A stretch of 64,000 bases of DNA from an uncultured Gammaproteobacteria bacterium (GTDB lineage: Bacteria; Patescibacteriota; Microgenomatia; Daviesbacterales; UBA10151). Every line of letters starts with the position of its first letter. Position 1 is the first letter of the stretch. Made by a program: the position numbers and the translations under genes. Below are positions 8,676-39,183 of the stretch, piece by piece. The notes under the pieces were generated by a model that was not told the DNA's origin, did no database searches, and was given only the letters and a program-made list of their open reading frames with translations. The DNA is taken from assembly GCA_964523905.1 (NCBI GenBank), contig CAZFYQ010000001.1, forward strand, positions 40,718 through 104,717, read 5' to 3'.

Positions 8676-8957
8676 ATGACAAACTTACACAAATATATTA
8701 AGATGTTGGGTATGGCAAAAAAGTCTAAGGCAATTGAACTTGTTTTACTAAGCCTAATTTTTAGCTCCTTATTTACTGACAACACCAAGGCCTACCTTGA
8801 TCCCGGATCCAGCAGCTATTTGTTACAAATTTTACTGGCTGGATTTTTTAGTGTCTTACTAGCAATTAAAACCTTTTGGAAAAGGATCACTTTGTTAATG
8901 CAACAATTATTTGGATCTAAGGATAAGGCTAATGATGAAAAATCCAAAGCTCAGTAA
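8676..8957 (+). CDS. small hypothetical membrane protein
   Basis: 93 aa, two hydrophobic segments, K-rich tail. Confidence 0.45.
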   Translation: MTNLHKYIKMLGMAKKSKAIELVLLSLIFSSLFTDNTKAYLDPGSSSYLLQILLAGFFSVLLAIKTFWKRITLLMQQLFGSKDKANDEKSKAQ

Positions 8958-19600: not shown

Positions 19601-21771
19601 CCCGGTACTCCACCACTATTAACCGGTGGAGGAATCTGGTTACCGGTAACAGGACTAGTGACAATTAAAGGGAAGTTAGTACAGTTATTTAATATATTAG
19701 GTTCAGAAACAAGATTATGATTGGAATCAGCGCAAACCCGTACTGAATATGCTCCAGGTTGAGAAACTGTCCATTGGCTACCTTCACTAACAGGTATTAC
19801 CTCACCACCATTTTGTCCATTACAAGCTGGAGGCTGAGTTGAAGCAAAGCCGGTAAAGAGCGCTCGTCCGGTTGGTATGGCATCTTTAGGGAAAGTACCC
19901 TTAAATACTGCAAAACTGGTTGTGAAACTATTACCAGAAATATTGGAAGCAATACAACCTGTATGAAGCGCGTTGACAATAGTAGCTGCAAAACTTAAGG
20001 ATTTTCCAGTGGTAATTTGTTTAGGATCTCCCGGAGTAGCAGTAATAACAAAGTCTCTAGGACTGCCGGTGTTTTGAACTGTCAGGTCAGGAAATGGTCC
20101 TTGAATTGGTCCACCGTTGCTGTAATAAACAGTGGGGGTTGGTGTAGTAGAGATGTTAGGATTTGGGGAAGTAATTGGGACTGAAGGGTTACCAGGAGTA
20201 GTAATTGTTTTAGTGACACAATTATCAGACTCATTTGATTCAGGTGATTGATTAGTATAATCAGCACAAGCTCGGACATTATATGTTGAGCCAGGATCTA
20301 ATGCACCAGTGGTTAAAGTATCATCTTTGGATTGTCCGGGTACTATTAGACCAACATTATCTAAAGGTTTAGCAGCTACAACCGTATTATCGCTGGCTTT
20401 ACTAACAGTCAATAATTCTGATGAATTTAATACTGGTTCTGCGTTGGGGGTTAAAGGATCTATAAAATGAGCAGAAAAAACCCATCCTTGATTATTATCT
20501 TCAGTAGGTTGATCAACTTGAGCGGTAAGATTTGGTAGGTTTGCATATTCTGCTCCTGTACACATTCCGATATCCCGATCTGCAAATACCCAGTTAGGGC
20601 TATGAACCCAAGGGTCTGCGGTAGAACCTGATTCAGATATCGTACGATCACCTACATTAAGCCCAACTGTCATATGAAGATGAACAAAGGCCTGTGAAAC
20701 CAGGTTACCTGCAATATGCCAGGATTGCTTGGTATCATTAACATTAATATCCTCATTAGGTGTAGTAATATTTTGATAAACATGAAGATACTGTAAAGTC
20801 CAAACCTGACCGTCTGGCGCATCAACTGAATGATAAACTCGTGCATAACCTGTACCAGCATCAAACCATCCAATGTATTGCCATGTCACTACATGTCCAT
20901 CAATGGTTGGTAAATATACCGGATCGCCGGCATTTTTAGCGATGCCAGATCCCTGATCTGTAATATCAATTGATTTGGCAGTTCGTATCAGGTCTCCGGC
21001 AGCATTTTTTACAGGATTACAAATCCCTTGGTCTGCAATATATTGGGGACTACAATGGCCACCAATACCGGTTCCAGCATTTATTCCGGAAGTTGCTGAA
21101 CACCCTTGACTGGTGAATCCTCCAAAAGTTGTGGGTGGACCATAAGAACCGCAACTTATTTTACCCTCAGGGACTGGACAGCTAAAGACATGACCAGTGT
21201 TTGTAGTTGGATTAGTCGGATTGGCAGGAGTGTTGGGATTAGTTTGAATTGGAATTTGGGTTGCACCACCTGGTTCTGAGTTATTAGCGGTAGTGACATT
21301 ATTGCTTCCTTGAACATTTAAGGGATAATTGGCAATTGTGCCAACCTGACCACTGGTATTTTCCGGTATCACTGCTAAGTTGTAGTTACCGCTACTAACA
21401 GTCTGCGGAATTTGATAAGTCCAAGTGCCAGCGCTATTAACCGGGACTGAGGCAGTTGTACCATTAGGTGCAAGAGTTAGAATTGCTTTACCTCCGGGAG
21501 TGCCGGTGCCTGTAATGCTGTCTGCTTGAGTGATTTGGTTAGGAGCAGTGGCGCTAAAATTACGTACTGAGTAAGTTTGAGGACTATGATGAAGTCGGGG
21601 TAGAATTTGATTCTTATAAACCCAGAAGCCGGCAGGAATAAGTATTACCAAGAGAAGTAAAATGGAAAGTTTAATGATAGTTTTTTTGGGGAGATTTTTA
21701 AACATTAGAAATGGTGAAGGTTCTGGAGGAGTGTAGTTGGGTGATATATAAACTTGCGGGTTAGTATCCAC
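16669..21771 (-). CDS. giant secreted multidomain surface protein (1700 aa)
   Basis: N-terminal signal-anchor and T/N/P/G-rich linkers throughout. Clan GH-A-like TIM-barrel region (LLIGLEVN ... FISETGW, about 17962-18894). PKD-like module (YDYSWSGDP..GTYQATVTV, about 18967-19209). Possible M23-like zinc-peptidase signature (YLHV ... FVHLHM, about 20572-21099). Twice-repeated 58-aa module near the C-terminus and a Cys-rich segment. Confidence 0.8.
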   Translation of the reverse strand: MDTNPQVYISPNYTPPEPSPFLMFKNLPKKTIIKLSILLLLVILIPAGFWVYKNQILPRLHHSPQTYSVRNFSATAPNQITQADSITGTGTPGGKAILTLAPNGTTASVPVNSAGTWTYQIPQTVSSGNYNLAVIPENTSGQVGTIANYPLNVQGSNNVTTANNSEPGGATQIPIQTNPNTPANPTNPTTNTGHVFSCPVPEGKISCGSYGPPTTFGGFTSQGCSATSGINAGTGIGGHCSPQYIADQGICNPVKNAAGDLIRTAKSIDITDQGSGIAKNAGDPVYLPTIDGHVVTWQYIGWFDAGTGYARVYHSVDAPDGQVWTLQYLHVYQNITTPNEDINVNDTKQSWHIAGNLVSQAFVHLHMTVGLNVGDRTISESGSTADPWVHSPNWVFADRDIGMCTGAEYANLPNLTAQVDQPTEDNNQGWVFSAHFIDPLTPNAEPVLNSSELLTVSKASDNTVVAAKPLDNVGLIVPGQSKDDTLTTGALDPGSTYNVRACADYTNQSPESNESDNCVTKTITTPGNPSVPITSPNPNISTTPTPTVYYSNGGPIQGPFPDLTVQNTGSPRDFVITATPGDPKQITTGKSLSFAATIVNALHTGCIASNISGNSFTTSFAVFKGTFPKDAIPTGRALFTGFASTQPPACNGQNGGEVIPVSEGSQWTVSQPGAYSVRVCADSNHNLVSEPNILNNCTNFPLIVTSPVTGNQIPPPVNSGGVPGGFPVSVDVSCDGTTPKVSLNLRPSSGDAVYIVRTLSPYSFIQNPDGYHDSIWVDHNYAYANIPPTDNAASGIIKNDPADFSGFDGAAPDLVSGTSYQYIMSAGNPAGSFDGTSHVLVTPACTTPVQVTCSAAYPKPGPLGTPADTVIWTANATAGNGTYDYSWSGDPASHYYSGLDGKTAQVDYAIPGTYQATVTVKSGGTTATANCQVNTATNSASHTPAASPTPNPTSPANPQPVNFKLGVKFFSPGTSVSGQTGWNSANDVASLAYIQRSWNDLHNPDISTDVNDSKNAGLDTYIAFDPLCNSRNKVASSDGTDHCSDSTPVTFQNQYSNPDNNSFINTMVDIARTYHPKYLLIGLEVNTYKNANQTDYNYFAHTLYPKAYDAIKAVSSNTQVAVSFTANSDLRQELADFNNKVDVLAVSLYPEFSYGSDINNIPTNLLSSIIDSSGSNLPLFISETGWISTSWQSFPASPDAQSAYINRLRQMVDQAKNNGKSIAAINYVSLADVNCNQQQISSEFGWYCYLGLMSPNGSPKPAFQEMRSWKNNAPSTISPTSTTHQKQLISITVNGQQIYPQNPNGIDLNLNSSSAYLMEITYLDSQGHQQTATRSLVFQRPAVSPTTSPTDTGWTFCSNEFENCSIPGNATVRFGANGQFITKVFAQGTYVCGNGTFGSDPAPTILKRCEYQLGGNIVPTNAPIIEEAAPTPTPSRNHPNCRSISCPAPTDGCTYQNQITSTCDANVTLTCGNLVCTGSAPSANTPTPTLTTPTTHQKQLLRITVNDQEIYPNNSSGLDLDLNANTSYLMTITYLDQNGQQQTISRSLIFQRPYSPPTSTPEPSPVIINPAPSIITDIAAENLSLSPQSPTVGQPVSFEADTANLGTVALNPTTTALGVIRSSNPSNICDTTVSFTTFISTIPATNQLNPGSSQHFSYPNSWTPTEAGNYCFAVIADFYNQVNDNNPANNRTGIPFVVSP
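17116..17289 (-). repeat. intragenic repeat copy 2 (58-aa module THQKQLLRITVNDQEIYPNN...LIFQR)
   Basis: Protein-level and DNA-level similarity (about 70%) to copy 1 at 17752-17925; shared DNA stretch attgtttttggtgggt. Confidence 0.8.
17752..17925 (-). repeat. intragenic repeat copy 1 (58-aa module THQKQLISITVNGQQIYPQN...LVFQR)
   Basis: See copy 2; copies lie about 615 bp apart inside the giant ORF. Confidence 0.8.
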
Positions 21772-27582: not shown

Positions 27583-28833
27583 ATGAAAATCACCAACATT
27601 ACAGCCAGACAAATATTAGATTCTAAAGCAACCCCTACAGTTGAAGTTGATGTGATTTTGGAAAATGGTATGGTTGCCAGAGCAGCAGTGCCATCAGGTG
27701 CTTCAACTGGTACAACAGAAGCAGTTGAGCTGCGGGATGATGATGCCAGTCACTACGCGGGTAAAGGAGTTTTAAAAGCAGTTACCAATGTTAATGAGAT
27801 CATTGCTAAAGAAATTATTAGTTTAGATGTAGAAAATCAGGACTTAATTGACCAAAAACTAATTGATTTGGATGGAACGGAAAATAAATCTAAACTGGGG
27901 GCCAACGCAATTTTGGGAGTATCAATGGCGGTTTGTAAAGCTGCAGCCAAAGCCTTAAAAAAGCCTCTTTACCAATATATCTCGGAAATCTCCGGTAACT
28001 CAAAAATGAATTTGCCGCGGCCAATGGTGTTACTTTTAGAAGGTGGTAAACATGGTAACTGGTCAACTGATATCCAGGAATTTATGATTATGCCAGGAGT
28101 TGGAAAATTCTATAGCTTTGCTGAGACTTTAGAAGCGGCTGTGAAAGTTTTTACGGCTCTGGAGAAAATATTAGTTAGTAAAAAATATTCAGTGGGTTTG
28201 GGTTTTGAAGGAGCTTTTTGTCCGCAGGAAATATCTTCTAATGAGGAAGCCTTGCAACTGTTAGTAGAAGCAATCAACAATGCGGGTTTTGAGCCAGGGA
28301 AAGATTTTGTTTTGGCAATTGACGGGGCAGCTAGTGAGTTTTTTGAGCAGGGACAGTATCATTTAAAGAGTGAAGATAAAACCTACTCGCCAAAAGAGTG
28401 GAGTGATAAATTGATTGAGCTGACGAAAAACTATCCGATTTTTTCTTTAGAAGATATGCATCAGGAAGAATTGTGGGATGATTGGGCCTATTTATTATCA
28501 AATTTAGGAAACTATCAAATAGTGGGTGATGATTTAGTAACTACTAATCTTGAAAGAATTAAAAAAGCCGCTGATAAAAAAGCGATTAATTCCGTATTAA
28601 TAAAACCAAACCAAATAGGTACTGTCACTGAAACTATCAAGGCAGTTCAGCTAACTCATCAGCTAGGTTGGACTTCGGTAGTTTCTCACCGCGGCGGTGA
28701 AACGAATGATGATTTTATTGCGGATTTTTGTGTAGGAGTAGGCAGTGAGCAATGTAAATTTGGTGGGCCAGTGCGGGGAGAAAGACTGGCAAAATATAAT
28801 CAGTTACTTAGAATTGAAGAAGAGGTTAAATGA
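27583..28833 (+). CDS. eno: enolase (phosphopyruvate hydratase)
   Basis: Motifs SHRGGETNDDFIAD and LLIKPNQIGT; 416 aa. Confidence 0.92.
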   Translation: MKITNITARQILDSKATPTVEVDVILENGMVARAAVPSGASTGTTEAVELRDDDASHYAGKGVLKAVTNVNEIIAKEIISLDVENQDLIDQKLIDLDGTENKSKLGANAILGVSMAVCKAAAKALKKPLYQYISEISGNSKMNLPRPMVLLLEGGKHGNWSTDIQEFMIMPGVGKFYSFAETLEAAVKVFTALEKILVSKKYSVGLGFEGAFCPQEISSNEEALQLLVEAINNAGFEPGKDFVLAIDGAASEFFEQGQYHLKSEDKTYSPKEWSDKLIELTKNYPIFSLEDMHQEELWDDWAYLLSNLGNYQIVGDDLVTTNLERIKKAADKKAINSVLIKPNQIGTVTETIKAVQLTHQLGWTSVVSHRGGETNDDFIADFCVGVGSEQCKFGGPVRGERLAKYNQLLRIEEEVK

Positions 28834-31217
28834 AACCATTTATTATTCCGTTAAAAGATCTAACTATTGAGCAAGTGCCGGAAGTAGGTGGCAAAAATGC
28901 TTCACTTGGTGAAATGATTGGTACTTTATCCAAAAAAGGAGTCAAGATTCCCGGTGGTTTTGCAGTCACTGCCACAGCTTACAGATATTTTTTACAGGAA
29001 ACCAAATTGGATCTATTTATCAAAGAAACTTTAAAAGGTCTGGATACTGGTAACCTAAGGCAACTGGCCCAAAAAGGAAAATTAATTCGGGAGAAAATTT
29101 TACAAACAGATTTCCCCAAAGATTTGGAACAGGCCATTATTGAAGCTCACAAAGATGCGGAAAAACAGTTTGGTAAAGGTAGTGATTTTGCTTGTCGGTC
29201 TTCGGCAACAGCGGAGGATTTACCAGATGCTTCTTTTGCCGGAGAACATGAGACTTTTTTAAATGTCCGGGGTTCTCATGACATTTTGATAGCCATTAAA
29301 AAAGCCATGGCATCGCTTTTTACTAACCGGGCCATTTCTTACCGAGTTGATAAGCATTTTGATCATTTAAAAATTGCTCTTTCTGTGGGAGTGCAGAAAA
29401 TGATTCGCTCTGATCTGGCTTGTTCCGGCATCATGTTTACACTGGATACTGAATCCGGCTTTCCCGGTGTGGTATTAATTAACGGATCTTGGGGTTTGGG
29501 AGAAATGATTGTTGGGGGTGAGGTAACACCGGACGAATTTTTGGTATTTAAAAAGAATTTAGATCAGGAAAAATTATCACCAATTATTGATAAAACACTG
29601 GGTACTAAAGACCGCAAAATGATTTATGGAAAAGATCAGCCCACGGAAATTATTCCTACCACGCAGTTTGAAAGGACTAATTTTATTTTGACGGATGCGG
29701 AAATTTTACAACTGGCCAGATGGGCCACCACAGTGGAAGAACACTACAGTAACAAATACAAAAAATGGACGCCAATGGATTTGGAATGGGCGAAAGATGG
29801 TAATACTGATGAGCTCTATATTATCCAGGCTAGGCCAGAAACTGTGCAGTCTTTAAAAGATCACTCCATCATCAAAGAATACACTAGACAGCAGGATGGA
29901 GAGTTAATTACTAAAGGTGCCTCGGTGGGAAATTCCATTGCCACCGGCATTGCCAGAGTAATTGAGGATCCGGAAGATATTCACGAGTTTAAACCAGGGG
30001 AGATTTTGGTCACCAGGGTGACGGACCCGGACTGGGAGCCGATTATGAAAATAGCCTCAGCTATTATTACCGATCAAGGTGGTCGAACTTCTCATGCGGC
30101 AATTGTCGCCAGGGAACTGGGAATTCCAGCGATTGTGGGAGCAATTAATGCCACTGTCAAAATCAAAAACGGTCGGGAAATTACTGTTGATTGTTCTGGG
30201 CAGTCCGGTCTGGTCTATTCCGGAAAATTAAAGTTTAAAGTTACGGAACATAGCATTAAAAACTTGCCGGAAACTAAAACTCACATTATGGTTAATATTG
30301 CTACCCCGGAAACGGCTTTTGAAAAATCATTTTTACCAAACAAAGGAGTGGGGTTGGCTCGGGAAGAATTTATCATTACATCTAGTATTGGCATCCACCC
30401 ATTGGCTTTAATTAACTATGATAAACAAGACTCAAAGATCAAAGAAAAAATTGATGCCAAAACCATAGGTTACAAAGATAAAAAACAGTTTTACATTGAT
30501 AAATTAGCTTTCGGGATTGCCCGTATTTCTGCCAGCTTTCATCCTAATCCGGTAATTTTAAGGTTTTCTGATTTTAAAACTAATGAATATCGCAGTCTAA
30601 TCGGTGGGGAAGCTTACGAACCAAAAGAGGAAAATCCGATGATTGGCTGGAGAGGAGCATCACGCTATTATCATCCGGAGTTTGCACCGGCTTTTATACT
30701 GGAAGTAGAAGCCATTAAAAAAGTAATTAATCAGATGGGTTTAACTAATACTTGTGTGATGGTGCCGTTTTGTAGGACACCGGAAGAAGGGAAGCAAGTG
30801 ATTAAAATTATGGAGGAAAATGGTTTGTCTAAAAAAACCGTGCCGTCTTTAAAAATCTATGTAATGTGTGAGATTCCGGCTAATGTCATTTTGGCGGATC
30901 AATTTTTGGATGTGTTTGATGGCATGAGTATTGGTTCAAACGATCTGACTCAGCTAACTTTAGGGATTGACCGGGATGGTAATGAAAGAATTAGGGGAAT
31001 TGCTAATGAAAATGACCAATCAGTTAAAGATTTAATTGCCCAGGTGATTAAAAAATGTAAGGCTCGCGGTAAATATATTGGGATTTGTGGTCAGGCACCG
31101 TCTGATTACCCGGATTTTACTAAGTTTTTGGTCAAAGAGGGTATTGAAAGTATTTCTTTAAACCCGGATACTGTGATCAAGATCATACCGGAAGTTTATA
31201 AAGCCGAGCATAATTAG
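28830..31217 (+). CDS. ppsA: phosphoenolpyruvate synthase (pyruvate, water dikinase)
   Basis: Phosphohistidine motif GGRTSHAAIVARELGIPAIVG and PEP-utilising C-terminal TIM domain; 795 aa; ATGA overlap with eno. Confidence 0.9.
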   Translation: MKPFIIPLKDLTIEQVPEVGGKNASLGEMIGTLSKKGVKIPGGFAVTATAYRYFLQETKLDLFIKETLKGLDTGNLRQLAQKGKLIREKILQTDFPKDLEQAIIEAHKDAEKQFGKGSDFACRSSATAEDLPDASFAGEHETFLNVRGSHDILIAIKKAMASLFTNRAISYRVDKHFDHLKIALSVGVQKMIRSDLACSGIMFTLDTESGFPGVVLINGSWGLGEMIVGGEVTPDEFLVFKKNLDQEKLSPIIDKTLGTKDRKMIYGKDQPTEIIPTTQFERTNFILTDAEILQLARWATTVEEHYSNKYKKWTPMDLEWAKDGNTDELYIIQARPETVQSLKDHSIIKEYTRQQDGELITKGASVGNSIATGIARVIEDPEDIHEFKPGEILVTRVTDPDWEPIMKIASAIITDQGGRTSHAAIVARELGIPAIVGAINATVKIKNGREITVDCSGQSGLVYSGKLKFKVTEHSIKNLPETKTHIMVNIATPETAFEKSFLPNKGVGLAREEFIITSSIGIHPLALINYDKQDSKIKEKIDAKTIGYKDKKQFYIDKLAFGIARISASFHPNPVILRFSDFKTNEYRSLIGGEAYEPKEENPMIGWRGASRYYHPEFAPAFILEVEAIKKVINQMGLTNTCVMVPFCRTPEEGKQVIKIMEENGLSKKTVPSLKIYVMCEIPANVILADQFLDVFDGMSIGSNDLTQLTLGIDRDGNERIRGIANENDQSVKDLIAQVIKKCKARGKYIGICGQAPSDYPDFTKFLVKEGIESISLNPDTVIKIIPEVYKAEHN

Positions 31218-31236: not shown

Positions 31237-31479
31237 ATGGCAACAAAAAAAGAAGAATTTAGAATTAATGGTGAAGGATTGGTAGCCAAAATCAAGGAAC
31301 TGATAAAAGAAGGTAATATCCGCAAAATCACCATCAAGGACAAAGAAGGCAAAGAGCTAATTACTTTTCCTTTAACCATTGGAGTGGTGGGAACAGTCTT
31401 AGCACCGGTGTTGGCAGCAATCGGGGCAATGGCAGCATTAATTGGGGAATGTACTATCTCTGTGGAAAGGGAACAATAA
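31237..31479 (+). CDS. DUF4342-like small protein
   Basis: 80 aa; pattern FRINGEGLVAKIKELIKEGNIRKITIKDKEGKELITFPLTIGVVGTVLAPVLAAIGAMAAL matches my recollection of DUF4342; strong RBS GGAGGTGA. Confidence 0.6.
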   Translation: MATKKEEFRINGEGLVAKIKELIKEGNIRKITIKDKEGKELITFPLTIGVVGTVLAPVLAAIGAMAALIGECTISVEREQ

Positions 31480-31494
31480 GGAAAGGAGGTTAAA

Positions 31495-31665
31495 ATGAAA
31501 CATCAAGGAGGCGGTAGCGCCATTTATGGTATCGGAATTTTAGGTGCTTTGGTATATTACCTGCAGCACGCCACAACTTTTTTAATGGGATTAATTGGCA
31601 TTTTTAAGGCCATTTTCTGGCCAGGAGTAATTTTGTACAAAGTACTGGAAGTTTGGCACATGTAG
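31495..31665 (+). CDS. small membrane protein (56 aa), below the ORF-track size cutoff
   Basis: RBS AGGAGGT 7 nt upstream of ATG; translation MKHQGGGSAIYGIGILGALVYYLQHATTFLMGLIGIFKAIFWPGVILYKVLEVWHM has two hydrophobic helices. Confidence 0.45.
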   Translation: MKHQGGGSAIYGIGILGALVYYLQHATTFLMGLIGIFKAIFWPGVILYKVLEVWHM

Positions 31666-31672
31666 GCTTATA

Positions 31673-31987
31673 ATGTCAGCCGACATGGAACAAGAACCAC
31701 TAAAGCCACATATTCCTTTTGAAAATGAAATTAATGCAGTACCTGATGAGATTAAAGATCAAATCAGATGTTTAATAAAGAAACCCTATAAGGTCTTTGA
31801 GGATAAAAAACATCCTGATGGCAGTCTGTTTTCGCTGGAGGAACAAATAGAGGCATCTGCAGAGCATTTATTTATTTTTGTCGGGGAAGAAATACTGGCG
31901 GGTAGTGATCCAAAAGAGGCTTTTGATTTGGTAAAACAAGTTCAGAAAAGGTTTTTGGATAGCCAAGAACCTGAAAAAGAAGTATAA
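31673..31987 (+). CDS. hypothetical acidic protein
   Basis: 104 aa ORF, no recognisable domain. Confidence 0.45.
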   Translation: MSADMEQEPLKPHIPFENEINAVPDEIKDQIRCLIKKPYKVFEDKKHPDGSLFSLEEQIEASAEHLFIFVGEEILAGSDPKEAFDLVKQVQKRFLDSQEPEKEV

Positions 31988-31994
31988 TATACTT

Positions 31995-32225
31995 ATGATT
32001 GCCACAAATGTTGAAACAGGACCTGGGGTACAACAAGTTATAGCTGATAGAATCATTCGTCCAATTGACCCTTTTGGTGAAAGAAAAGGAACAATAGAAG
32101 AGCAAGTTACAGCTGATCAAGCCGAAATGACGAAGTTTGCTGTTGAGAGGTCACTAGAGCCAGCTTCAATTAATAGAATGGCCGATTTATTTGATAGAAT
32201 TCGTGATATTGCTTCTGCAAAATAA
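31995..32225 (+). CDS. hypothetical protein
   Basis: 76 aa ORF; coding-like composition. Confidence 0.4.
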   Translation: MIATNVETGPGVQQVIADRIIRPIDPFGERKGTIEEQVTADQAEMTKFAVERSLEPASINRMADLFDRIRDIASAK

Positions 32226-32282
32226 GTTTTTATTACCTACTTTAAACTAGCAATTTCCTCCCAAAAGGCCTAGAATTTTTCT

Positions 32283-32777
32283 ATGAACGCAGAAGATGTT
32301 TTGGAACTTTATAAATTATTTCAGGATCATGGAATAGAGATCTGGATTGATGGTGGATGGGGAATTGATTCACTATTAGGCCATCAGACAAGATGGCATA
32401 AGGATTTGGATATTGCCTTGGATGATAAATATAAACCAAAATTACTAAAACTGTTAGCTGAAAGAGGATACAAGGAAATCAATCTAGATACTAGACGTGA
32501 CTGGAATTTTGTTATGAGTGATGGGCAAAGAGAAATTGATATTCACACCTTTATTTTTGATGAGCAGGGTAAAAATATCTATGGTACAGGTTATCCGAAG
32601 CCAGCATTATCAGGAACAGGAATAATTAATGGGGTTTCTATTAATTGTATTCCCCCTGAATGGGTGGTTAAACTGCATGCAATGGCCACTTATACTCCCA
32701 AAGAAAAAGACATCCAGGATGTAAATGCGGTCTGTGATAAATTTGGCCTAGAGCCTCCAGAGAATTATAAAAAGTAG
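32283..32777 (+). CDS. ANT(2'')/Lnu-family nucleotidyltransferase
   Basis: IEIWIDGGWGIDSLLG..HKDLDIA resembles the WIGGGWAIDARLG..DDIDL core of aminoglycoside-2''-adenylyltransferase-type minimal NTases. Confidence 0.65.
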   Translation: MNAEDVLELYKLFQDHGIEIWIDGGWGIDSLLGHQTRWHKDLDIALDDKYKPKLLKLLAERGYKEINLDTRRDWNFVMSDGQREIDIHTFIFDEQGKNIYGTGYPKPALSGTGIINGVSINCIPPEWVVKLHAMATYTPKEKDIQDVNAVCDKFGLEPPENYKK

Positions 32778-32791
32778 TAAAATTTGGTTAA

Positions 32792-33418
32792 ATGCTCGTA
32801 TTTATTGATGACTCCGGTGATGCAGGTTTCAAGCTTCAAAAGGGATCAACCTTAATATTTGTAATTGGTTGTGTAATCTTTGATGATGAGTTGGAAGCAG
32901 AGAAAACAGCAATCGCCATTAAAGAATTAAAAAGAAAACTAAAATTTCCTGATGACGTGGAGTTCAAATTTAACAAATCTACTAAAAAAGTAAAAATGGA
33001 GTTTTTGGAAACGATAAAGTTGTTTAAGTTTAAAATCAGATGTTTGGTAGTTCAAAAGGATATGATACGGAGTGATGAGTTTAAGAAGAATAAAAATTCA
33101 TTTTATGGGTATGCTATTAAGATGCTTCTAAAATATAGCGCGGGTTCAATCCTAAATGCCAAGATAAGAATAGATGGAGGTGGAGATAGAATATTTAGAA
33201 GAAATTTTATTTCTTATCTAAGAAAGCAGTTAAATTCTGATCAGAAAAGAATAATGGATGAGTGCAAATTATTGGATTCAAAACAAAATGTTTTGATACA
33301 GCTGGCTGATATGATAGCAGGTAGTATTTATAGAAGTTACCAGACAGAAAAAACAGATAGTCTAGTTTATAAGAAGATTATTCAAAGACATATTGAAGAC
33401 GAGTGGAGGTTCAAATAA
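32792..33418 (+). CDS. DUF3800-family protein
   Basis: N-terminal MLVFIDDSGDAG motif and overall length typical of DUF3800. Confidence 0.6.
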   Translation: MLVFIDDSGDAGFKLQKGSTLIFVIGCVIFDDELEAEKTAIAIKELKRKLKFPDDVEFKFNKSTKKVKMEFLETIKLFKFKIRCLVVQKDMIRSDEFKKNKNSFYGYAIKMLLKYSAGSILNAKIRIDGGGDRIFRRNFISYLRKQLNSDQKRIMDECKLLDSKQNVLIQLADMIAGSIYRSYQTEKTDSLVYKKIIQRHIEDEWRFK

Positions 33419-33445
33419 CAAAAAATGGCTCCTTAAGGAGCCATT
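33417..33445 (-). terminator. intrinsic terminator for minus-strand sRNA
   Basis: Hairpin AATGGCTCC-TTAA-GGAGCCATT (33424-33445); read on the minus strand it is followed by a U6 tract (plus-strand A tract 33417-33423). Confidence 0.55.
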
Positions 33446-33520
33446 CCCAACCACGTTCCTATCCAAACGTTAGCTTGGAACGCGCACCGTCCGGTGACAA
33501 TTCGGAATACAGGTTTCTGT
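33417..33520 (-). ncRNA. candidate ~100-nt small RNA with own promoter and terminator
   Basis: Minus-strand promoter TTGCAT-17 nt-TATACT (plus coordinates 33527-33555) and the terminator above; GC-rich relative to flanks, with internal hairpins (CACCG-GA-CGGTG; GTTCC..GGAAC). Confidence 0.4.
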
Positions 33521-33599
33521 AGTTAAAGTATAGCATATCTTATTAAGCTATGCAAAGATAACCCGAATTTCTAAGTTCAAAGTATACGGTTTGTTACAG

Positions 33600-33630
33600 T
33601 TGACAGATTTGTACCCACAAAAAATATGGT
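33600..33630 (+). promoter_or_regulatory. possible promoter for ORF 33767 (divergent from the sRNA promoter)
   Basis: TTGACA at 33600-33605; weak -10 candidates (AAATAT/TATGGT) 16-19 nt downstream; would give a ~130-nt 5' UTR. Confidence 0.3.
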
Positions 33631-33766
33631 TTCACTGAAACAGATCAGCCCGTCGAAGGCATCTCGCTCGGCAACTCCAAACTAATCCCCAAAATCCTAA
33701 TGGAAAGAACCTAGTCCGCTCCTGGCTCCATGCTGTCTGAGGTGGTAAAATCTGATAAGTAATCAA

Positions 33767-34204
33767 ATGAATATTCTAAAGAAGCATTTAGGTTTAGTTA
33801 TTTTAACTGTTGTTTTGGTTTTACTTGATATTTTGCACAAAGAATTATTTTTTACAGTTCTACTAATTTATGGTCTGTTGATCAAATTTTTATTGACTGA
33901 ATCTATAAGTAAAAAACTTAGAAAGATTTTATCAGTAACAATATGGACTGCTGCCCTAATAATCACTTTTTTACTCTATTATTCAAATCACTATTTTCCT
34001 CGAGGCCCTATGATTGATACTGGAGATGTTCTATGCCAAAACGATGACCGCGGGCCATGTTCAGAGAAATTTATAGAAGATACCAGTAATCTAAATGTCC
34101 CAACATGGGTGAAGTTTTTTAAAGGTTCGGAAGGAGAATTACTATGGTTTGGATTATTGTTTGCTGGAATTGTAATAATTAGAGATAAACTATCTTCTAA
34201 TTAA
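33767..34204 (+). CDS. hypothetical membrane protein
   Basis: 145 aa, 3-4 hydrophobic segments. Confidence 0.5.
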   Translation: MNILKKHLGLVILTVVLVLLDILHKELFFTVLLIYGLLIKFLLTESISKKLRKILSVTIWTAALIITFLLYYSNHYFPRGPMIDTGDVLCQNDDRGPCSEKFIEDTSNLNVPTWVKFFKGSEGELLWFGLLFAGIVIIRDKLSSN

Positions 34205-34539
34205 ATTAATGCAAGCTGCGAGAGCTTTTTCCTTTTGATTGTCTCAAATTCCTCATCTGTTACAATGCCCTTGTTTCTAAGATCGTGAAGCCTTGTAAAA
34301 AAATCCAACTCATGAATGGCTGTAGTGGTTGGTGTCTCCAACTTATAAATTTTTTTGATTATTAATTTAATTTGTTCTGCTTCTTTTGGGGTATAAACTC
34401 TCCAAGCACCGCCAGTATTACTTACTGGAAAGGCATGCTTTTTTTCAAGGCGATAGAAAGTTACCCGGCCTAACGGTATTCCTTCTGATCTAAGTTCATT
34501 TAAAATTTTTCCAACTGTAATGTAAGGGAAAATCCTCAT
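34201..34539 (-). CDS. MerR/excisionase-type HTH protein with C-terminal SHOCT domain
   Basis: N-terminal HTH (ITVGKILNELRSEGIPLGRVTFYRLEKK) and C-terminal LHDLRNKGIVTDEEFETIKRKKL (SHOCT-like). Confidence 0.55.
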   Translation of the reverse strand: MRIFPYITVGKILNELRSEGIPLGRVTFYRLEKKHAFPVSNTGGAWRVYTPKEAEQIKLIIKKIYKLETPTTTAIHELDFFTRLHDLRNKGIVTDEEFETIKRKKLSQLALI

Positions 34540-34782
34540 ATTAACCCATAATATATCATACTAATCTATATTATGCAATATTATATCATTTTCCATCATA
34601 TTTAACATGAATAAATTTGCAGGTTAAGTAAATTTTTAAAGCTAAATTTTGCCTCTTGCGTTTTGAAATATGTTCATGCTAGAATCTGGCTGTTTAATAT
34701 GTATAAGGATACTTTTCTAACCTGTCCTGAGTAAAGTTTCTCAAAAAAATTAAGCAAATAAAAACCTTTTATTAAGGAGAAT

Positions 34783-35019
34783 ATGTCAAAAGGAAAAGAC
34801 CAACACGTTGTTCCAGTAGGATCAGACTGGGGAATTAAAGGAGCCGGCAATAGCCGGTACACTGAGATTTTTGAAAATAAAGCCGACGCGCTTGAAGCCG
34901 GAAGAGAGATTGCAATCAACCAGCAATCAGAGCTGGTTATTCATGGCAGAAATGGTCGAATTCAGGATAAAGATAGCTTCGGAAATGATCCCAGCTCAAT
35001 TAAGGACAGAGTGCATTAA
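34783..35019 (+). CDS. DUF2188-family protein
   Basis: QHVVPVGSDWGIKGAGNSRYTEIFENKADALEAGREIAINQQSELVIHGRNGRIQDKDSFGNDP matches the conserved DUF2188 pattern. Confidence 0.7.
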   Translation: MSKGKDQHVVPVGSDWGIKGAGNSRYTEIFENKADALEAGREIAINQQSELVIHGRNGRIQDKDSFGNDPSSIKDRVH

Positions 35020-35036
35020 AAAATTGAGAGGAGGTG

Positions 35037-35180
35037 AATGATTATGACAATAAACCAATTACTGGAAAAAGCAGTCGAAATTACTAAAGAGTATGCCAGC
35101 AGCGGAGGAGTTGTTCCATTAGATGCTGTATTAGAGCAAGTTTTTAGCAAGCTGAAGCAATTGAATCAAGAAAGCCAATA
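35037..35180 (+). CDS. small ORF (47 aa), below the ORF-track size cutoff
   Basis: RBS GAGGAGGTGA immediately upstream; MIMTINQLLEKAVEITKEYASSGGVVPLDAVLEQVFSKLKQLNQESQ. Confidence 0.35.
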
Positions 35181-35202
35181 AAAACTGCTCTAATTACGCT
35201 TT

Positions 35203-35841
35203 ATGTATACTTTTTACAAATATCTTAATCAAAAATATCTAAAAAGCTTTTTGGGTGGTCAAATTTTAATTAGACCACTTGCTGAATTTAGAAAGGCTGA
35301 AGAGTATGGTGCAGAAATAGGTGATTCAAATGAAGGGAAGGTTAAATTTCTAACAAAGGGGAAATCTTTCGATACAAGTGACCCCAATCATAATAAATCA
35401 CTGGCCCATGCAATTTCGGGTACTATTCAGGCAGGACAAATAGTTATTGAAGCGAGCGAAACAATAAACATTGCAACTAATAATTGTTTCATTTTTTCCG
35501 TATCACAAGTTAAAGCAAGCGCGGTAGCAAATAAAATGAACAGAGATACCTGTGTGGAAATTGCTGAATTCGGGTCCTTTTTTAAAGATCTGACAGATTG
35601 TTTACTAAGAAAAGGCTATAAAGTAAAGCTAGATCAAGCGCTTGTGAAAGATTGTCTATATGTTGATCGGGTGTTTGATCTACAAGATGGGTTACCTGAT
35701 GCACCAGCTTTTTTAAAAGAAAAAAAACATGAGTATCAAAAAGAGGTTAGGTGTGCGTGGATTATCGAGAATACAGTAGAAGGGGCTATTGTAGTAGAAT
35801 GCCCTGAACTTAAGAAATATTTTAAGATAGTAAATCTTTAA
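35203..35841 (+). CDS. hypothetical protein (212 aa)
   Basis: Long ORF without recognisable motifs; no clear SD. Confidence 0.45.
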   Translation: MYTFYKYLNQKYLKSFLGGQILIRPLAEFRKAEEYGAEIGDSNEGKVKFLTKGKSFDTSDPNHNKSLAHAISGTIQAGQIVIEASETINIATNNCFIFSVSQVKASAVANKMNRDTCVEIAEFGSFFKDLTDCLLRKGYKVKLDQALVKDCLYVDRVFDLQDGLPDAPAFLKEKKHEYQKEVRCAWIIENTVEGAIVVECPELKKYFKIVNL

Positions 35842-35867
35842 ATAATAAACAAAGGAGGTGAGCTATA

Positions 35868-36140
35868 TTGGAAGAAAAACCGAAAAGTAGTGATAATGTA
35901 AACGTCAATTTTGATACAACACCTATTTTATATACTGATAATGTCAGTATGACTGTTAATGAAGATGGTGTTGTGCTGGATTTCACACAACGTTTATTAA
36001 CAACAAATCAGGTAAAGATTGTTGCAAGAATAGGAATGAGTAGAGAACATGCGAAGAAATTTGTAGAAGCTTTAGAAACTGGGATCAAAAGTGCAGAAAG
36101 CGCCATGCAATCCGCTGCAAAAAAAGCTAAGTTGAATTGA
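35868..36140 (+). CDS. DUF3467-family protein
   Basis: ILYTDNVSMTVNEDGVVLDFTQ ... VKIVARIGMSREHAKKFVEALETGIKSAE matches the DUF3467 consensus as I recall it; RBS AGGAGGTGA. Confidence 0.6.
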   Translation: MEEKPKSSDNVNVNFDTTPILYTDNVSMTVNEDGVVLDFTQRLLTTNQVKIVARIGMSREHAKKFVEALETGIKSAESAMQSAAKKAKLN

Positions 36141-36235
36141 TATTCTTAGCGACTTAAGGGATTTGGAGATTTCGCTGTAGACACAGAATGTTGATGGATT
36201 TTGATTTCTGTGAGCCATAATATTAGAATGGCTTT

Positions 36236-36577
36236 ATGACTGAAAGGAGAGCTGGGAATGATTTTTTGCAAAGAGTTTTTGAAACTCGTAAAGATAACCC
36301 AGCTGTTTTAAGGTTAATGGTTAGGAGAAGTATATGGATGATAGATAAGGCTGCCAGTGGGCTTAATCGATTTGGTGAGCCAATGCGAAAATCCGAACAG
36401 GATGCTTTAATTGCTGAAGGAATAGATGCTCTTCATGTTTGGTTAGAATATGCCGCGCATGCGCAAATTCCAATTGCTGCAGATTTAGTACTGCAAGCTG
36501 AAGATAGAGTGACGACATTTGGACCCCGTGTTGAAGAGCTTAAACAACTACAAAAAAGGACAATAACAAAAATTTAA
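36236..36577 (+). CDS. hypothetical protein
   Basis: 113 aa, helical, no recognisable domain. Confidence 0.45.
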   Translation: MTERRAGNDFLQRVFETRKDNPAVLRLMVRRSIWMIDKAASGLNRFGEPMRKSEQDALIAEGIDALHVWLEYAAHAQIPIAADLVLQAEDRVTTFGPRVEELKQLQKRTITKI

Positions 36578-36617
36578 AGATATCTAGATAGGGAGTTTTT
36601 GGTGGTATAATTTAAAG

Positions 36618-36827
36618 ATGAGCGGGTATTTTTATCATCAATATAACCTGGGATCTTTTGTTTGGCTAATGCCTTTTATATTTCTTGAACTGATTTTAAA
36701 AGGGATCGCGCTTTGGAAAGCCGGTAGAAATAATCAAAAATATTGGTTTATTGCGCTTTTGATTATTAATTCCGTGGGACTGCTGCCAATAATCTATCTT
36801 TTGTTTTTTCAGGTTAAGCGTAAATGA
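36618..36827 (+). CDS. small two-TM membrane protein (DUF5652-like)
   Basis: ALWKAGRNNQKYWFIALLIINSVGLLPIIYLL pattern. Confidence 0.5.
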   Translation: MSGYFYHQYNLGSFVWLMPFIFLELILKGIALWKAGRNNQKYWFIALLIINSVGLLPIIYLLFFQVKRK

Positions 36828-37016
36828 TCTTCACACTTTTGGCCGCAAAAGTGTGGCAAAACTCCTTGCTTGAAAGTCGGGCTACTCTTCAGATTTTGTC
36901 TAGCGGGGGTTTGCCCCCTCACAAATTCCTCCACTAAAGTGATAGTCAGTTTGTGTTTCCCCCTGCTGCCAAAATCCTCATCTTTTAACGCCCTTTGTTT
37001 CCATAGCAAGACCTTT

Positions 37017-37045
37017 TTGACAATGTAAAAGCGGATTGTTACAAT
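37017..37045 (+). promoter_or_regulatory. sigma70-like promoter, leaderless transcript for ORF 37053
   Basis: TTGACA (37017-22), 17-nt spacer, TACAAT (37040-45); the ATG at 37053 is 7 nt past the -10. Confidence 0.55.
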
Positions 37046-37052
37046 TTTTGCA

Positions 37053-37397
37053 ATGAACGCATATGAAAGATTAGTACAATCCAGAAAGTTAGAGCAGATG
37101 TATGGTCCGGAAAGAATTGCCCGAATGGTGGCTGACAGAGAGGCAACTGACCCGAGTATTACCCGGAAGAAACAAATTTACAAAGAGCAGGCAGTAGACA
37201 TTGCTAATAAATTAGGTGCTATACCCTTAACCCCAATTCAAAGAGAAAGACTGCAGTGGCAATTGGATGTGCTTACTTACAGGGCAGAGCATGGACCAGT
37301 AATACATTCAGGATATTATGACTTTAACTTATTACCGGAAACTTTAGCTGCACGTAATCCCTTAACTGGCGGTAGGGGAATGGAAGGAATTAGTTAA
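37053..37397 (+). CDS. hypothetical protein
   Basis: 114 aa ORF behind a near-consensus promoter. Confidence 0.5.
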   Translation: MNAYERLVQSRKLEQMYGPERIARMVADREATDPSITRKKQIYKEQAVDIANKLGAIPLTPIQRERLQWQLDVLTYRAEHGPVIHSGYYDFNLLPETLAARNPLTGGRGMEGIS

Positions 37398-39183
37398 TTC
37401 TACTAGCGCGAAGAGCATTGATAATCACTGCTACATCAATGCCTTCCTGTAGGATGGCGCCATAAATTGGGGGGATTAGGCCAAAGGAGGCAAAGACCAT
37501 GGCGATCACACTGACCCCAATTCCAGCTAAGATACTTTGAATAGCAATGCCCACAGTTTGTTTGGAAATATTGATGATGTCAGAAACTAACTGAAAATTT
37601 CCTCCCAGGAAAACGATATCCGCTGCTTCTGAGGCGGCTGTTTGTTCTTCATGAGAAAAAACTAGTCCGGCATCTGCCAAAGCCAAAGCTGGAGCATCAT
37701 TTATACCATCTCCAATCATGGCAATGGCCTTGTTTTCCTGTTGCAGTTTACGGATGCCAATTTGTTTATCCTGTGGAGTGCAATTAGCCTGTAAACAAAT
37801 TCGGGAGTCCAGCTGTTCAATGACCTTTTCCGCTGCTCCCAGCTTATCTCCCGTATAGATGAAGATTTCATAACCCTGCGAAAGCAAGTTTTTTATTACC
37901 GCCTGAGAGTCTTCCTTAATTTGATCTTCAAAGTAAAAATTGGCCAGTTGTTTTTGGTCTTTAAACAAAGCAATGGCCATACCAGTATCCAGTGGCAATT
38001 TACTAAGATGATAAACTGTGCCGGAAACTTTACCACTAATTCCTTTGCCCACCTCTTCTTTAATATCCTCAGCCGGCAGCTTCGGGGTTTTGTTTTGCGT
38101 AGCAAAGTCCACTACTGCCTTGGCCAAAGGATGCAAAGAATTTCTTTCAATGGCCTGGGCAATTTCCAGAACTTTTTTCTGAGAATAGTTTTTATCCAAG
38201 ATTTCCAGTTTGGTAACTATTGGTAGACCCAGGGTTATGGTGCCGGTTTTATCAAAAATAATTGCTTTGACTTTAGATAAGGCCTCCAAGGAAGAGAGTC
38301 TTTTGACAATGATACTTTTTTTAGCAGAGGCATTGACGCCACCTAAAAGGGCTATCGGGGTAGCCAAAATTAACGGGCAAGGGGTGGCTACCACCAAAAC
38401 TGCCAATACTGTCACAATATTATGACTATAAAACCAGGCAAACGTAGCAATAAAAATAGTCAGAATGGTAAAAATCGTGCTGTAGCGATTGGCCAAGCGG
38501 ATTAAAGGAGCTTTTTCCTGCTGGGCCTGTTTGACCATTTCAATAATTTTATGATAAGTGGAGTTTAGTTCTGTTTTTGTAACCTCCAACACCATCGGGT
38601 CACCAACATTAACTGTTCCAGATCGTAAAAGATCGCCTTTAATTTTTTCCGAAGTATAAGGTTCTCCGGTTAAAGAGGATTCATCAGCTAAACCAGTGCG
38701 GGATTTTAAAATTCCATCCAAAGGAATCACTTCACCTCTTCGGATCACAATTTCCTGGCCGATTTTGATGTTTTCAATGTGAGCTTTTTCTGCGGGCTGA
38801 TTATTTTGCCAAAGGGTGACAAGACTGGGAATGCGGTCTGCTAATTTGGTTAAATTACTTTTAGCCGAGTTGATACCGTATTCTTCTAAGGTCCTTCCGG
38901 AAGACAGCATTAAGGCAATAATTGAGGCTACTAAGTAATCTCCGGTAATAAAAGCCACTGAAATTGCTAACATTGCTACATAATCCAAGGCAAATTGTTT
39001 TCTTTGAATTTCCTGGTAACTATCTACTACCAGCTGGTAAGAGCCAAGCAAAATAGTAACAATGATTAAAGGCAGGGATAAGGAATTTAGCTTAAAGATG
39101 TTTAAAATCAAATAAACAATGATTCCGGAAAGCACTAGCAGAGGAATTTTAAAAGCTTTAATAAGGGAAAAAGAAATGAGCAT
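37390..39183 (-). CDS. P1B-type heavy-metal ATPase with T-P-C-P membrane motif (P1B-5-like), no N-terminal metal-binding domain
   Basis: DKTGTIT, TGD, GDGINDAPAL and HP loop (NSLHPLA); TM motif VATPCPLILATP (PCP codons at 38374-38382). Confidence 0.75.
   Translation of the reverse strand: MLISFSLIKAFKIPLLVLSGIIVYLILNIFKLNSLSLPLIIVTILLGSYQLVVDSYQEIQRKQFALDYVAMLAISVAFITGDYLVASIIALMLSSGRTLEEYGINSAKSNLTKLADRIPSLVTLWQNNQPAEKAHIENIKIGQEIVIRRGEVIPLDGILKSRTGLADESSLTGEPYTSEKIKGDLLRSGTVNVGDPMVLEVTKTELNSTYHKIIEMVKQAQQEKAPLIRLANRYSTIFTILTIFIATFAWFYSHNIVTVLAVLVVATPCPLILATPIALLGGVNASAKKSIIVKRLSSLEALSKVKAIIFDKTGTITLGLPIVTKLEILDKNYSQKKVLEIAQAIERNSLHPLAKAVVDFATQNKTPKLPAEDIKEEVGKGISGKVSGTVYHLSKLPLDTGMAIALFKDQKQLANFYFEDQIKEDSQAVIKNLLSQGYEIFIYTGDKLGAAEKVIEQLDSRICLQANCTPQDKQIGIRKLQQENKAIAMIGDGINDAPALALADAGLVFSHEEQTAASEAADIVFLGGNFQLVSDIINISKQTVGIAIQSILAGIGVSVIAMVFASFGLIPPIYGAILQEGIDVAVIINALRASRIN

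Follow-up and report, generated by a model that had tools for sequence, protein, structure and literature searches.

The 64-kb window analysed here, a 64,000-nt stretch of contig CAZFYQ010000001.1 from a Daviesbacteria-like Patescibacteria genome, contains a run of small genes between ppsA and a P-type ATPase gene (interval 31237-37400). Within this interval we found a self-contained cassette of about 0.78 kb (~32778-33556), in which a gene for a DUF3800 protein, a predicted nuclease, converges on a structured small RNA (sRNA) of the DUF3800-IX family. This cassette is the sole conserved multi-part unit of the interval. The other genes, including those for a Lnu-type nucleotidyltransferase (NTase), a 212-aa protein, a DUF3467 protein and a 113-aa protein, are neighbours by position only, and the interval as a whole is a mosaic of independent small genes, neither one system nor a demonstrable mobile island. 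We are highly confident in the architecture of the cassette. Considering architecture and mechanism together, we suggest, with a probability of roughly 0.4, that the cassette is an RNA-restrained nuclease pair.

Architecture of the DUF3800/RNA cassette

The DUF3800 gene (32792-33418, plus strand) encodes a protein of 208 aa that matches PF12686 with 59.9 bits (gathering score 21, E 6e-16). It has no Shine-Dalgarno site, and a TAAAAT -10-like box at 32778-32783 (plus strand), 8 nt before the ATG, is a putative leaderless promoter. The DUF3800-IX motif (33445-33515, minus strand) lies 26 nt past the DUF3800 stop codon and is convergent with the DUF3800 gene. It was identified with the covariance model of Rfam family RF02968 at 53.2 bits (gathering score 36.8, E 1e-9), aligned over model positions 1-67 of 67, and RF02968 is the sole Rfam family detected in the window. 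An initial annotation of the window had listed a candidate sRNA here. That RNA is real, and rather than the separate item it was taken for it belongs with the DUF3800 gene as its conserved partner.

On the minus strand a conserved tACAAA immediately precedes the RNA motif, and a promoter scan located a sigma-70-type promoter for the sRNA at 33527-33556 (TTTGCA, 18 nt, TATACT with TG; minus strand). The transcript would run from ~33520 to ~33415, and this ~105-nt unit folds far better than shuffled controls (z -3.4). A terminator scan revealed a palindromic, G+C-rich hairpin with a 12-pair stem at 33421-33448, which is flanked by an A-run and, on the opposite side, by a T-run. Since the hairpin follows the A-run and the DUF3800 stop codon on the plus strand, we read it from its sequence as a shared bidirectional intrinsic terminator of the DUF3800 mRNA and the sRNA. 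The left edge of the cassette is the -10-like box at 32778 and the right edge is the sRNA promoter at 33556. The spacer beyond this promoter (33560-33766) shows no sign of a second RNA, as its folding is not unusual (z +0.77) and it has no Rfam match.

Conservation of the cassette

All 11 DUF3800 loci from metagenomes whose flanks are long enough carry the same RNA in the same position and orientation, with scores of 45-60 bits. Its -10 box occurs at the same position in every related locus and its -35 box in most, and the tACAAA recurs in all 11. A hairpin with a T-run was found at the DUF3800-adjacent RNA copies of 10 related loci, with differing stem sequences. The predicted RNA structure covaries, with double changes in 17 of its 29 pairs across 11 sequences. 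On the protein side, the DUF3800 gene lacks a Shine-Dalgarno site in most of 12 loci and is preceded, 6-9 nt from its ATG, by a -10-like box. More distant relatives were found in IMG/VR, where 12 of the 17 DUF3800 loci (32-42% protein identity) keep a convergent RNA 3-40 nt past the stop codon, and the cassette also occurs in high-GC viral contigs from outside the candidate phyla radiation (CPR).

When loci are compared pairwise, DNA homology in most cases sets in 0-23 nt ahead of the DUF3800 ATG and breaks off 6-29 nt beyond the 5' end of the RNA. The flanking genes differ at every related cassette and include, as judged by inspection of open reading frames (ORFs), EF-G, GlmS-like and serine hydroxymethyltransferase-like genes. 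Homology that is confined to the cassette, together with unrelated flanking genes, indicates a self-contained unit of ~0.78 kb with two convergent promoters.

Two related loci showed further features. In the Daviesbacteria-like locus L084, two diverged DUF3800-IX copies (4961-5031 and 6656-6724) flank a single DUF3800 gene. The upstream copy follows a glycosyltransferase-like ORF (by inspection) and has no clear terminator, and a 113-nt repeat (94% identical) lies ~70-184 nt beyond the 5' end of each RNA, just upstream of the promoters. In locus L082, a 128-aa gene is duplicated on either side of the related cassette (2837-3226 and 7578-7964), and inspection revealed a minimal NTase-like ORF of another kind together with a small toxin-antitoxin-like two-gene pair (8686-9174; 9240-9829). 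The surroundings of the L082 cassette give the impression of a variable region with many accessory genes. We also noticed by eye an 8-nt complementarity between the sRNA of the window and the codons of the DUF3800 DSGD residues, which is not kept in other loci and was discarded.

The RNA is also found apart from DUF3800. Its invariant core was present in 13 IMG/VR contigs, all 13 of which pass the Rfam threshold, and DUF3800 adjoins the RNA in only three of these. In the other 10 (L113, L114, L116-L122 and L124) DUF3800 was not detected by an HMM search of a 2-14 kb stretch, by Pfam searches of the nearest ORFs or by a collection-wide scan with two peptide patterns, which leaves a divergent DUF3800 elsewhere on those viral contigs possible. 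Examples of such RNAs are found at 2246-2315 in L113, 12185-12255 in L121 and 10159-10212 in L124. Five of the 10 contigs contain PHROG-matched terminase, portal, primase, SbcC-like or replication/nuclease genes, and in two of the 10 tRNA genes adjoin the RNA. The DUF3800-less viral RNAs could be phage decoys or antitoxin RNAs, or they could have a role that is independent of DUF3800.

The DUF3800 protein is a predicted RNase HII-fold nuclease

The DUF3800 protein carries a FIDDSGD motif and Q170-L-A-D173. Residues D6, D128 and Q170xxD173 were invariant, Q170-L-A-D173 both in a set of 33 and in a set of 11 sequences, and D7 and D132 were invariant in CPR DUF3800 sequences and replaced by E in some of the wider set. 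N-terminal D-E/D and C-terminal QxxD motifs have been described for DUF3800 (PMC7736814). An AlphaFold2 model of the protein reached a pLDDT of 83.5 and a pTM of 0.85, and its top four Foldseek matches were archaeal RNase HII structures (including 3p83, 1eke and 1i39), each with a probability of 1.00, E-values from 1.6e-4 to 1e-3 and a TM-score of about 0.51. We therefore predict, from this model, that the protein is an RNase HII-fold nuclease, and an RNase H or RNase H2-like fold has been published for DUF3800 (PMC7736814, PMC10910872).

The subfamily is large, with >1241 clusters in the CPR, and in the top 120 nearly every protein has 208 aa, with identities of 63-88%. No match to the DUF3800 protein was found among PDB sequences or in GenBank phages. 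It did match two PHROGs and the PADLOC profile PDC-M04A (E 5e-16). Among the 14 other interval proteins tested, only the 78-aa DUF2188 protein had a PADLOC match, which covers the full length of the single-gene defence candidate PDC-S16 (E 1.8e-31). The initial annotation had proposed possible defence systems here, and these two matches give the interval a weak defence flavour.

A proposed restraint of the nuclease by its RNA partner

In the mechanism that we propose, an abundant structured sRNA would bind the DUF3800 nuclease and restrain it as an RNA antitoxin. If the sRNA were lost or titrated away, for instance through phage infection or transcription shut-off, the nuclease would be free to cut nucleic acid, and the cassette would behave as a toxin-antitoxin or abortive-infection-like pair. 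Taken on its own, this mechanism falls somewhat short of an even chance, as does the full proposal.

Several lines of evidence led us to RNA restraint of the nuclease. DUF3800 proteins are effector partners or fusions in type VII retrons (PMC7736814) and accessories of collateral-cleaving Cas12a2/a3 and type VI-F CRISPR loci (PMC10910872, PMC13594972, PMC12669027). To these links we add the PADLOC match, the portability of the cassette across contexts, hosts and phages, the DUF3800-less phage RNAs and the number of RNA partners. Eleven unrelated RNA motifs adjoin DUF3800 genes, and no hypothesis for this was obvious when they were described (Weinberg et al. 2017, PMC5737381). That many unrelated structures with one protein family fits fast-evolving cognate pairs. 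We also count in favour of an antitoxin that the sRNA has a full -35/-10 promoter, as opposed to the -10 box only of the DUF3800 gene. DUF3800-less RNAs in phage contigs would be expected if phages carry decoy antitoxins, which suggests a broader picture in which DUF3800/sRNA cassettes form a distinct class of toxin-antitoxin or abortive-infection systems with RNA antitoxins, and the phage RNAs are counter-defence decoys. Such a class, if real, would explain the pairing of 11 unrelated RNA structures with one protein family, which has been a puzzle since 2017. This extension is more doubtful than the mechanism itself, and we put it forward tentatively.

Other observations weigh against RNA restraint. 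In the literature searched, no DUF3800 RNA has been shown to bind, to be toxic or to defend. The RNA of the cassette is single copy, downstream and convergent, and not an upstream tandem array as in type III toxin-antitoxin systems. The DUF3800-less phage RNAs could fit a DUF3800-independent RNA role equally well, and the comparison of cassette gain and loss is limited to relatives with at most 72% ppsA identity or to contigs that are 99-100% identical. Finally, the DUF3800 subfamily is widespread in the CPR (the >1241 clusters above) and has diverged to much the same extent as ppsA (70-72% identity to Daviesbacteria), so that vertical inheritance of a housekeeping function is possible. DUF3800 and its RNA could then be a CPR housekeeping ribonucleoprotein for RNA or DNA processing rather than a conflict system. 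The many CPR lineages that carry the subfamily, the near-uniform length and identity of its top 120 clusters and the place of the cassette among housekeeping genes in several loci (by ORF inspection) agree with such a role. However, the same cassette occurs in the non-CPR, high-GC viral contigs, its genomic context is different at each locus, an additional RNA copy stands unpaired in one locus, and the wider DUF3800 family has PADLOC, retron and CRISPR links. We consider a housekeeping ribonucleoprotein quite unlikely.

Two further roles for the sRNA have to be weighed against restraint. The RNA could be a cofactor or guide of the nuclease and provide a scaffold or targeting, as in Argonaute, IscB or TnpB, instead of inhibiting it. 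The RNase H fold is common to Argonaute PIWI and RuvC nuclease domains, the Foldseek search returned weak Argonaute matches, DUF3800 accompanies RNA-guided CRISPR effectors, and RNA and DUF3800 are tightly co-inherited. Yet the Argonaute matches are not significant (E > 0.5), and the RNA has no variable guide-like segment, as its variable sites are the covarying stems and the remainder is nearly invariant. The DUF3800-less phage RNAs are also hard to reconcile with a guide, which leaves this role about as improbable as a housekeeping one. The sRNA could instead control DUF3800 expression by RNA-RNA pairing, either through a type I-like 3' overlap or in trans with the 5' end of the mRNA. The convergent transcripts share a terminator, and their 3' ends are therefore complementary over ~26 nt, a layout reminiscent of Bacillus type I pairs, for example txpA/RatA. 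This overlap is the terminator hairpin only, however, and does not extend to the conserved covarying core of the RNA. In 11 loci, the duplexes computed for the sRNA with the 5'-terminal 60 nt of the mRNA were no more favourable in energy than those of shuffled sequences (z -2.2 to +1.4), and the protein is a 208-aa predicted nuclease and not a small membrane peptide. Control by pairing is very unlikely, and restraint of the nuclease by the sRNA is the interpretation that we prefer.

The NTase and the 212-aa protein lack their proposed partners in other loci

The initial annotation had pointed to two other candidate modules in the interval, namely a nucleotide-modifying or defence module of the NTase and DUF3800, and a second module of the 212-aa, DUF3467 and 113-aa proteins. 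Spacing on the same strand is tight in both, as DUF3800 starts 14 nt after the NTase stop codon and the genes of the trio are 26-95 nt apart, and the gene order is kept in contigs of the same population. Nevertheless, neither held up when homologues were examined in other contexts. None of 11 DUF3800 homologues (53-74% identity) in metagenomic loci, 8 of which have enough upstream flank for the NTase test, is beside an NTase or any other interval gene, except for an unlinked DUF5652 gene in L084. Conversely, DUF3800 is absent beside NTase homologues (70-73% identity) in three independent contexts, and no DUF3467 or 113-aa gene was found beside 212-aa homologues in three independent contexts. 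DUF3800 also apparently has its own -10 box. The two-module proposal is largely refuted, and we give it hardly any credence.

The NTase gene (32283-32777, plus strand) encodes a Lnu/ANT(2'')-family minimal nucleotidyltransferase of 164 aa (PF10706, 97.3 bits vs gathering score 21, E 1e-27). Its alignment to Lnu(D) covers residues 2-163 of 164 (E 1.9e-29), that to Lnu(C) is also full length, and it further matches the PDB structure of LnuA (4fo1, E 6e-11) and ANT(2'')-Ia. With 102.8 bits vs an NCBIfam allele cut-off of 325, it is no named resistance gene. We found 327 homologues with E ≤ 1e-10, many of which are labelled lincosamide nucleotidyltransferase. The homologue contexts without DUF3800 show that the NTase is a stand-alone member of the Lnu family and not a DUF3800 partner. 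Elsewhere, a close NTase homologue directly follows an APH-type phosphotransferase gene (L103, 3106-4507) and another is near a class A beta-lactamase-like gene (L104, 1467-4498). There are thus hints of small antibiotic-modification clusters in CPR genomes.

For the 212-aa protein (35203-35841, plus strand), profile and structure searches had been suggested. It matches two PHROGs of unknown function, including phrog_13198 (E 2.6e-15), and no significant fold match was obtained. The protein belongs to a family of 1437 representative clusters at 50% identity (E ≤ 1e-3), which are stand-alone proteins of ~210 aa. Conserved motifs of the family (P0250-P0398) are LYKY, IGDxxEG, FGYDxCV and YxYQxEVRxxW, and some members have N-terminal extensions of 90-150 aa. 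Searches of Pfam, PADLOC and PDB sequences with 39 diverse members gave no match, nor did NCBIfam with the 212-aa protein itself. Its AlphaFold2 model (pLDDT 73.6) had no Foldseek match in the PDB with E ≤ 1e-3, and a Tpt1/KptA-like fold was rejected since the matches that pointed to it were faint and not significant. A tblastn search with the 212-aa protein found no match in GenBank phages and none in IMG/VR. The homologues are found in three unrelated contexts, in one of which (L093) the homologue adjoins a serine recombinase. Searches of protein families and PDB sequences with the 113-aa protein returned no match.

A mosaic of small genes between ppsA and the P-type ATPase

The place of the interval agrees with the initial annotation. 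It lies between ppsA (28830-31217) on the left and the P-type ATPase gene (37390-39183, minus strand) on the right, beyond which a MASE1-PAS histidine kinase is next. A 1700-aa ORF is located upstream of the interval at 16669-21771 (minus strand). The picture of an island of small ORFs stood as well, although the count of 14 plus two did not. We found 15 plausible ORFs in 31237-37400, 13 of which are at least 60 aa long, and one 56-aa and one 47-aa ORF with strong ribosome-binding sites. The mean length is 111 aa and the coding density 82%. The assignments of DUF4342, ANT(2'')/Lnu NTase, DUF3800, DUF2188, DUF3467 and DUF5652 were all borne out by Pfam (E 2e-6 to 1e-27).

The left part of the interval begins with genes for a DUF4342 protein of 80 aa (31237-31479, plus strand; PF14242, E 2.2e-25), which has a strong GGAGGTGA ribosome-binding site, and a hydrophobic, membrane-like 56-aa peptide (31495-31665, plus strand) with an AAGGAGG site and no family match. 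An acidic 104-aa protein (31673-31987, plus strand) and a 76-aa protein (31995-32225, plus strand) follow, also without family matches. The strain-variant contig L001 (99.1% overall DNA identity) encodes a version of the former with 85% identity over 73 aa, and the gene of the latter has a TATAAT box 6 nt 5' of its ATG. To the right of the NTase gene and the cassette is a gene for a multi-pass hydrophobic protein of 145 aa with no family match (33767-34204, plus strand).

The sole minus-strand gene of the interval encodes a 112-aa protein with a weak helix-turn-helix (HTH) and a C-terminal SHOCT-like motif (34201-34539). The fusion of a MerR-type HTH to SHOCT that was proposed for it is weakly seen at best, with 25.1 bits for SHOCT, below the gathering score of 27, and a very weak MerR_1 HTH match (E 0.04). 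This HTH-SHOCT gene is divergent from a packed same-strand run of DUF2188, 47-aa, 212-aa, DUF3467, 113-aa and DUF5652 genes, from which a 243-nt AT-rich spacer separates it. At the head of the run is the DUF2188 gene (34783-35019, plus strand; 78 aa, PF09954, E 6e-22), followed by the 47-aa ORF (35038-35181, plus strand), which matches no family and is preceded by a GAGGAGGTGA ribosome-binding site. The DUF3467 gene (35868-36140, plus strand; 90 aa, PF11950, E 1.8e-6) has a TTG start and a AAGGAGGTGA ribosome-binding site. The 113-aa ORF (36236-36577, plus strand) starts 6 nt after a TAGAAT box, which makes a leaderless start an option. An alternative start at 36338, with an AGGAG site 10 nt upstream, gives a 79-aa version, the one picked for the identical contig L107 in a public gene call, and the true start may be at 36338.

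The last gene of the run encodes a DUF5652 membrane peptide of 69 aa (36618-36827, plus strand; PF18893, E 1.8e-22), homologues of which also occur in the unrelated CPR loci L020 and L084. Directly 3' of its stop codon is a perfect hairpin with a 10-bp stem and no T-run (36832-36855), and a second hairpin, GGGGGTTTGCCCCC, is found at 36905-36918. Both had been annotated ~9 nt away from these positions, at 36841-36864 and 36912-36929, and exist at the corrected coordinates. A near-consensus promoter (TTGACA, 17 nt, TACAAT with TG; 11/12 matches) at 37017-37045 (plus strand) is sited for a leaderless start of the final gene, which encodes a 114-aa protein without a family match (37053-37397, plus strand) and whose 3' end overlaps the end of the ATPase gene by 8 nt.

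Leaderless promoters, another earlier proposal, are plausible. Seven interval genes, encoding the 76-aa, NTase, DUF3800, HTH-SHOCT, 113-aa, DUF5652 and 114-aa proteins, have no Shine-Dalgarno site and have a -10-like hexamer 6-8 nt before their start codons, which makes leaderless transcripts plausible. These leaderless-type starts are at 31995, 32283, 32792, 34539 (minus strand), 36236, 36618 and 37053, and the rest of the genes have strong GGAGG sites. Judged from these sites, the genome may mix leaderless and leadered expression.

We also considered whether the whole 6-kb interval could be a degraded mobile element or a small defence island that was horizontally acquired. Its GC content of 0.360 is below the 0.392 of the window, and two of its proteins match PADLOC candidates (PDC-M04A and PDC-S16). 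The divergent layout of the HTH gene and the DUF2188 gene run is comparable to that of published DUF2188 operons, which a preprint on CBASS regulators places downstream of opposite-strand HTH/peptidase regulator genes (10.1101/2022.04.27.489752). The 212-aa family has PHROG matches and one homologue that adjoins a serine recombinase. Moreover, in 80 related loci, the closest of which has 72% ppsA identity, none of the 15 interval genes comes within 10 kb of the ppsA gene. Against an acquired island, the GC dip is mild, with 10% of equal-sized windows equally low or lower, and the interval genes are independently distributed. In agreement with the initial annotation, the marks of a classic mobile element are absent, as the interval proteins scanned contain no integrase or recombinase domain, the whole 64 kb has no tRNA gene and direct repeats flanking the interval are at chance level only.

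The relatives compared also bear on this. The closest by ppsA are Patescibacteria metagenome assemblies with 70-72% identity (Candidatus Daviesbacteria is the name of two of the top three). The contigs in which window proteins recur exactly come from the same population (runs SRR9179559-62), match the window at 99-100% identity and carry no information on polymorphism. Since relatives with at most 72% ppsA identity are too distant, the loss of synteny does not show acquisition. A variable accessory region, as the initial annotation had proposed, is still conceivable from these comparisons. An acquired island is unlikely. An island as such is ordinary, with small hypothetical genes and the shuffled neighbourhoods that are typical of CPR genomes.

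Comparison with known systems

The interval as a whole differs from integrative mobile elements in that it has no integrase, no tRNA and no flanking repeats. Its DUF3800 and DUF2188 proteins match the PADLOC profiles PDC-M04A and PDC-S16, both of which are models of candidate systems, and a second protein component of PDC-M04 was not seen among the interval proteins. The NTase resembles Lnu(A), Lnu(C), Lnu(D) and ANT(2'')-Ia in its DGGWG...D.D nucleotidyltransferase core and its full-length alignment to Lnu(D) and Lnu(C). In contrast to these enzymes, it scores far under the allele cut-offs, and its family is frequently encountered in the genomes of environmental CPR and Chloroflexi.

The cassette is like type III toxin-antitoxin systems (ToxIN, CptIN and TenpIN) in pairing a predicted nuclease with an adjacent structured RNA and in having a terminator that separates the two. 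Type III systems also have many non-homologous RNA partners and links to phage defence and phage-borne RNA mimics. However, their RNA is an upstream, co-directional tandem repeat, whereas that of the cassette is single, downstream and convergent. The predicted fold is that of RNase HII and not of ToxN/AbiQ, to which no match was found in Pfam or PADLOC. Type I toxin-antitoxin systems have a 3'-overlapping antisense RNA. The cassette differs from them in that its overlap is a terminator of ~26 nt and its protein has 208 aa and no long hydrophobic segment.

Type VII retrons share with the cassette the effector family, the N-terminal D-E/D motif, the RNase H2-like fold and a structured non-coding nucleic acid (PMC7736814). 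Retron DUF3800 proteins are without the Q of the QxxD motif, whereas the cassette subfamily keeps Q170xxD173. No reverse transcriptase domain was found in the interval proteins, and none was seen by inspection of the ORFs beside related cassettes.

The closest known relative is the DUF3800-IX motif itself (RF02968, PMC5737381). The cassette RNA is a member of this family, as judged by its full-model score, its covarying stems and its DUF3800 neighbour, and it is followed by an intrinsic terminator, as published for several of the motifs of that study. The association between DUF3800 and RNA was thus already published in 2017, and what we add is the delimitation of the cassette. This includes the strict convergence 3-40 nt past the stop codon, the shared terminator, the RNA's own promoter, the leaderless protein gene, the defined cassette edges and the DUF3800-less copies in phage contigs. 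DUF3800 repeatedly turns up in an accessory role with retrons and collateral-cleaving CRISPR effectors, and its RNA association has been without a functional hypothesis since 2017. In the cassette, the two promoters, the shared terminator and the leaderless ORF make up a minimal, delimited unit of 0.78 kb, in which RNA restraint of the nuclease is directly testable.

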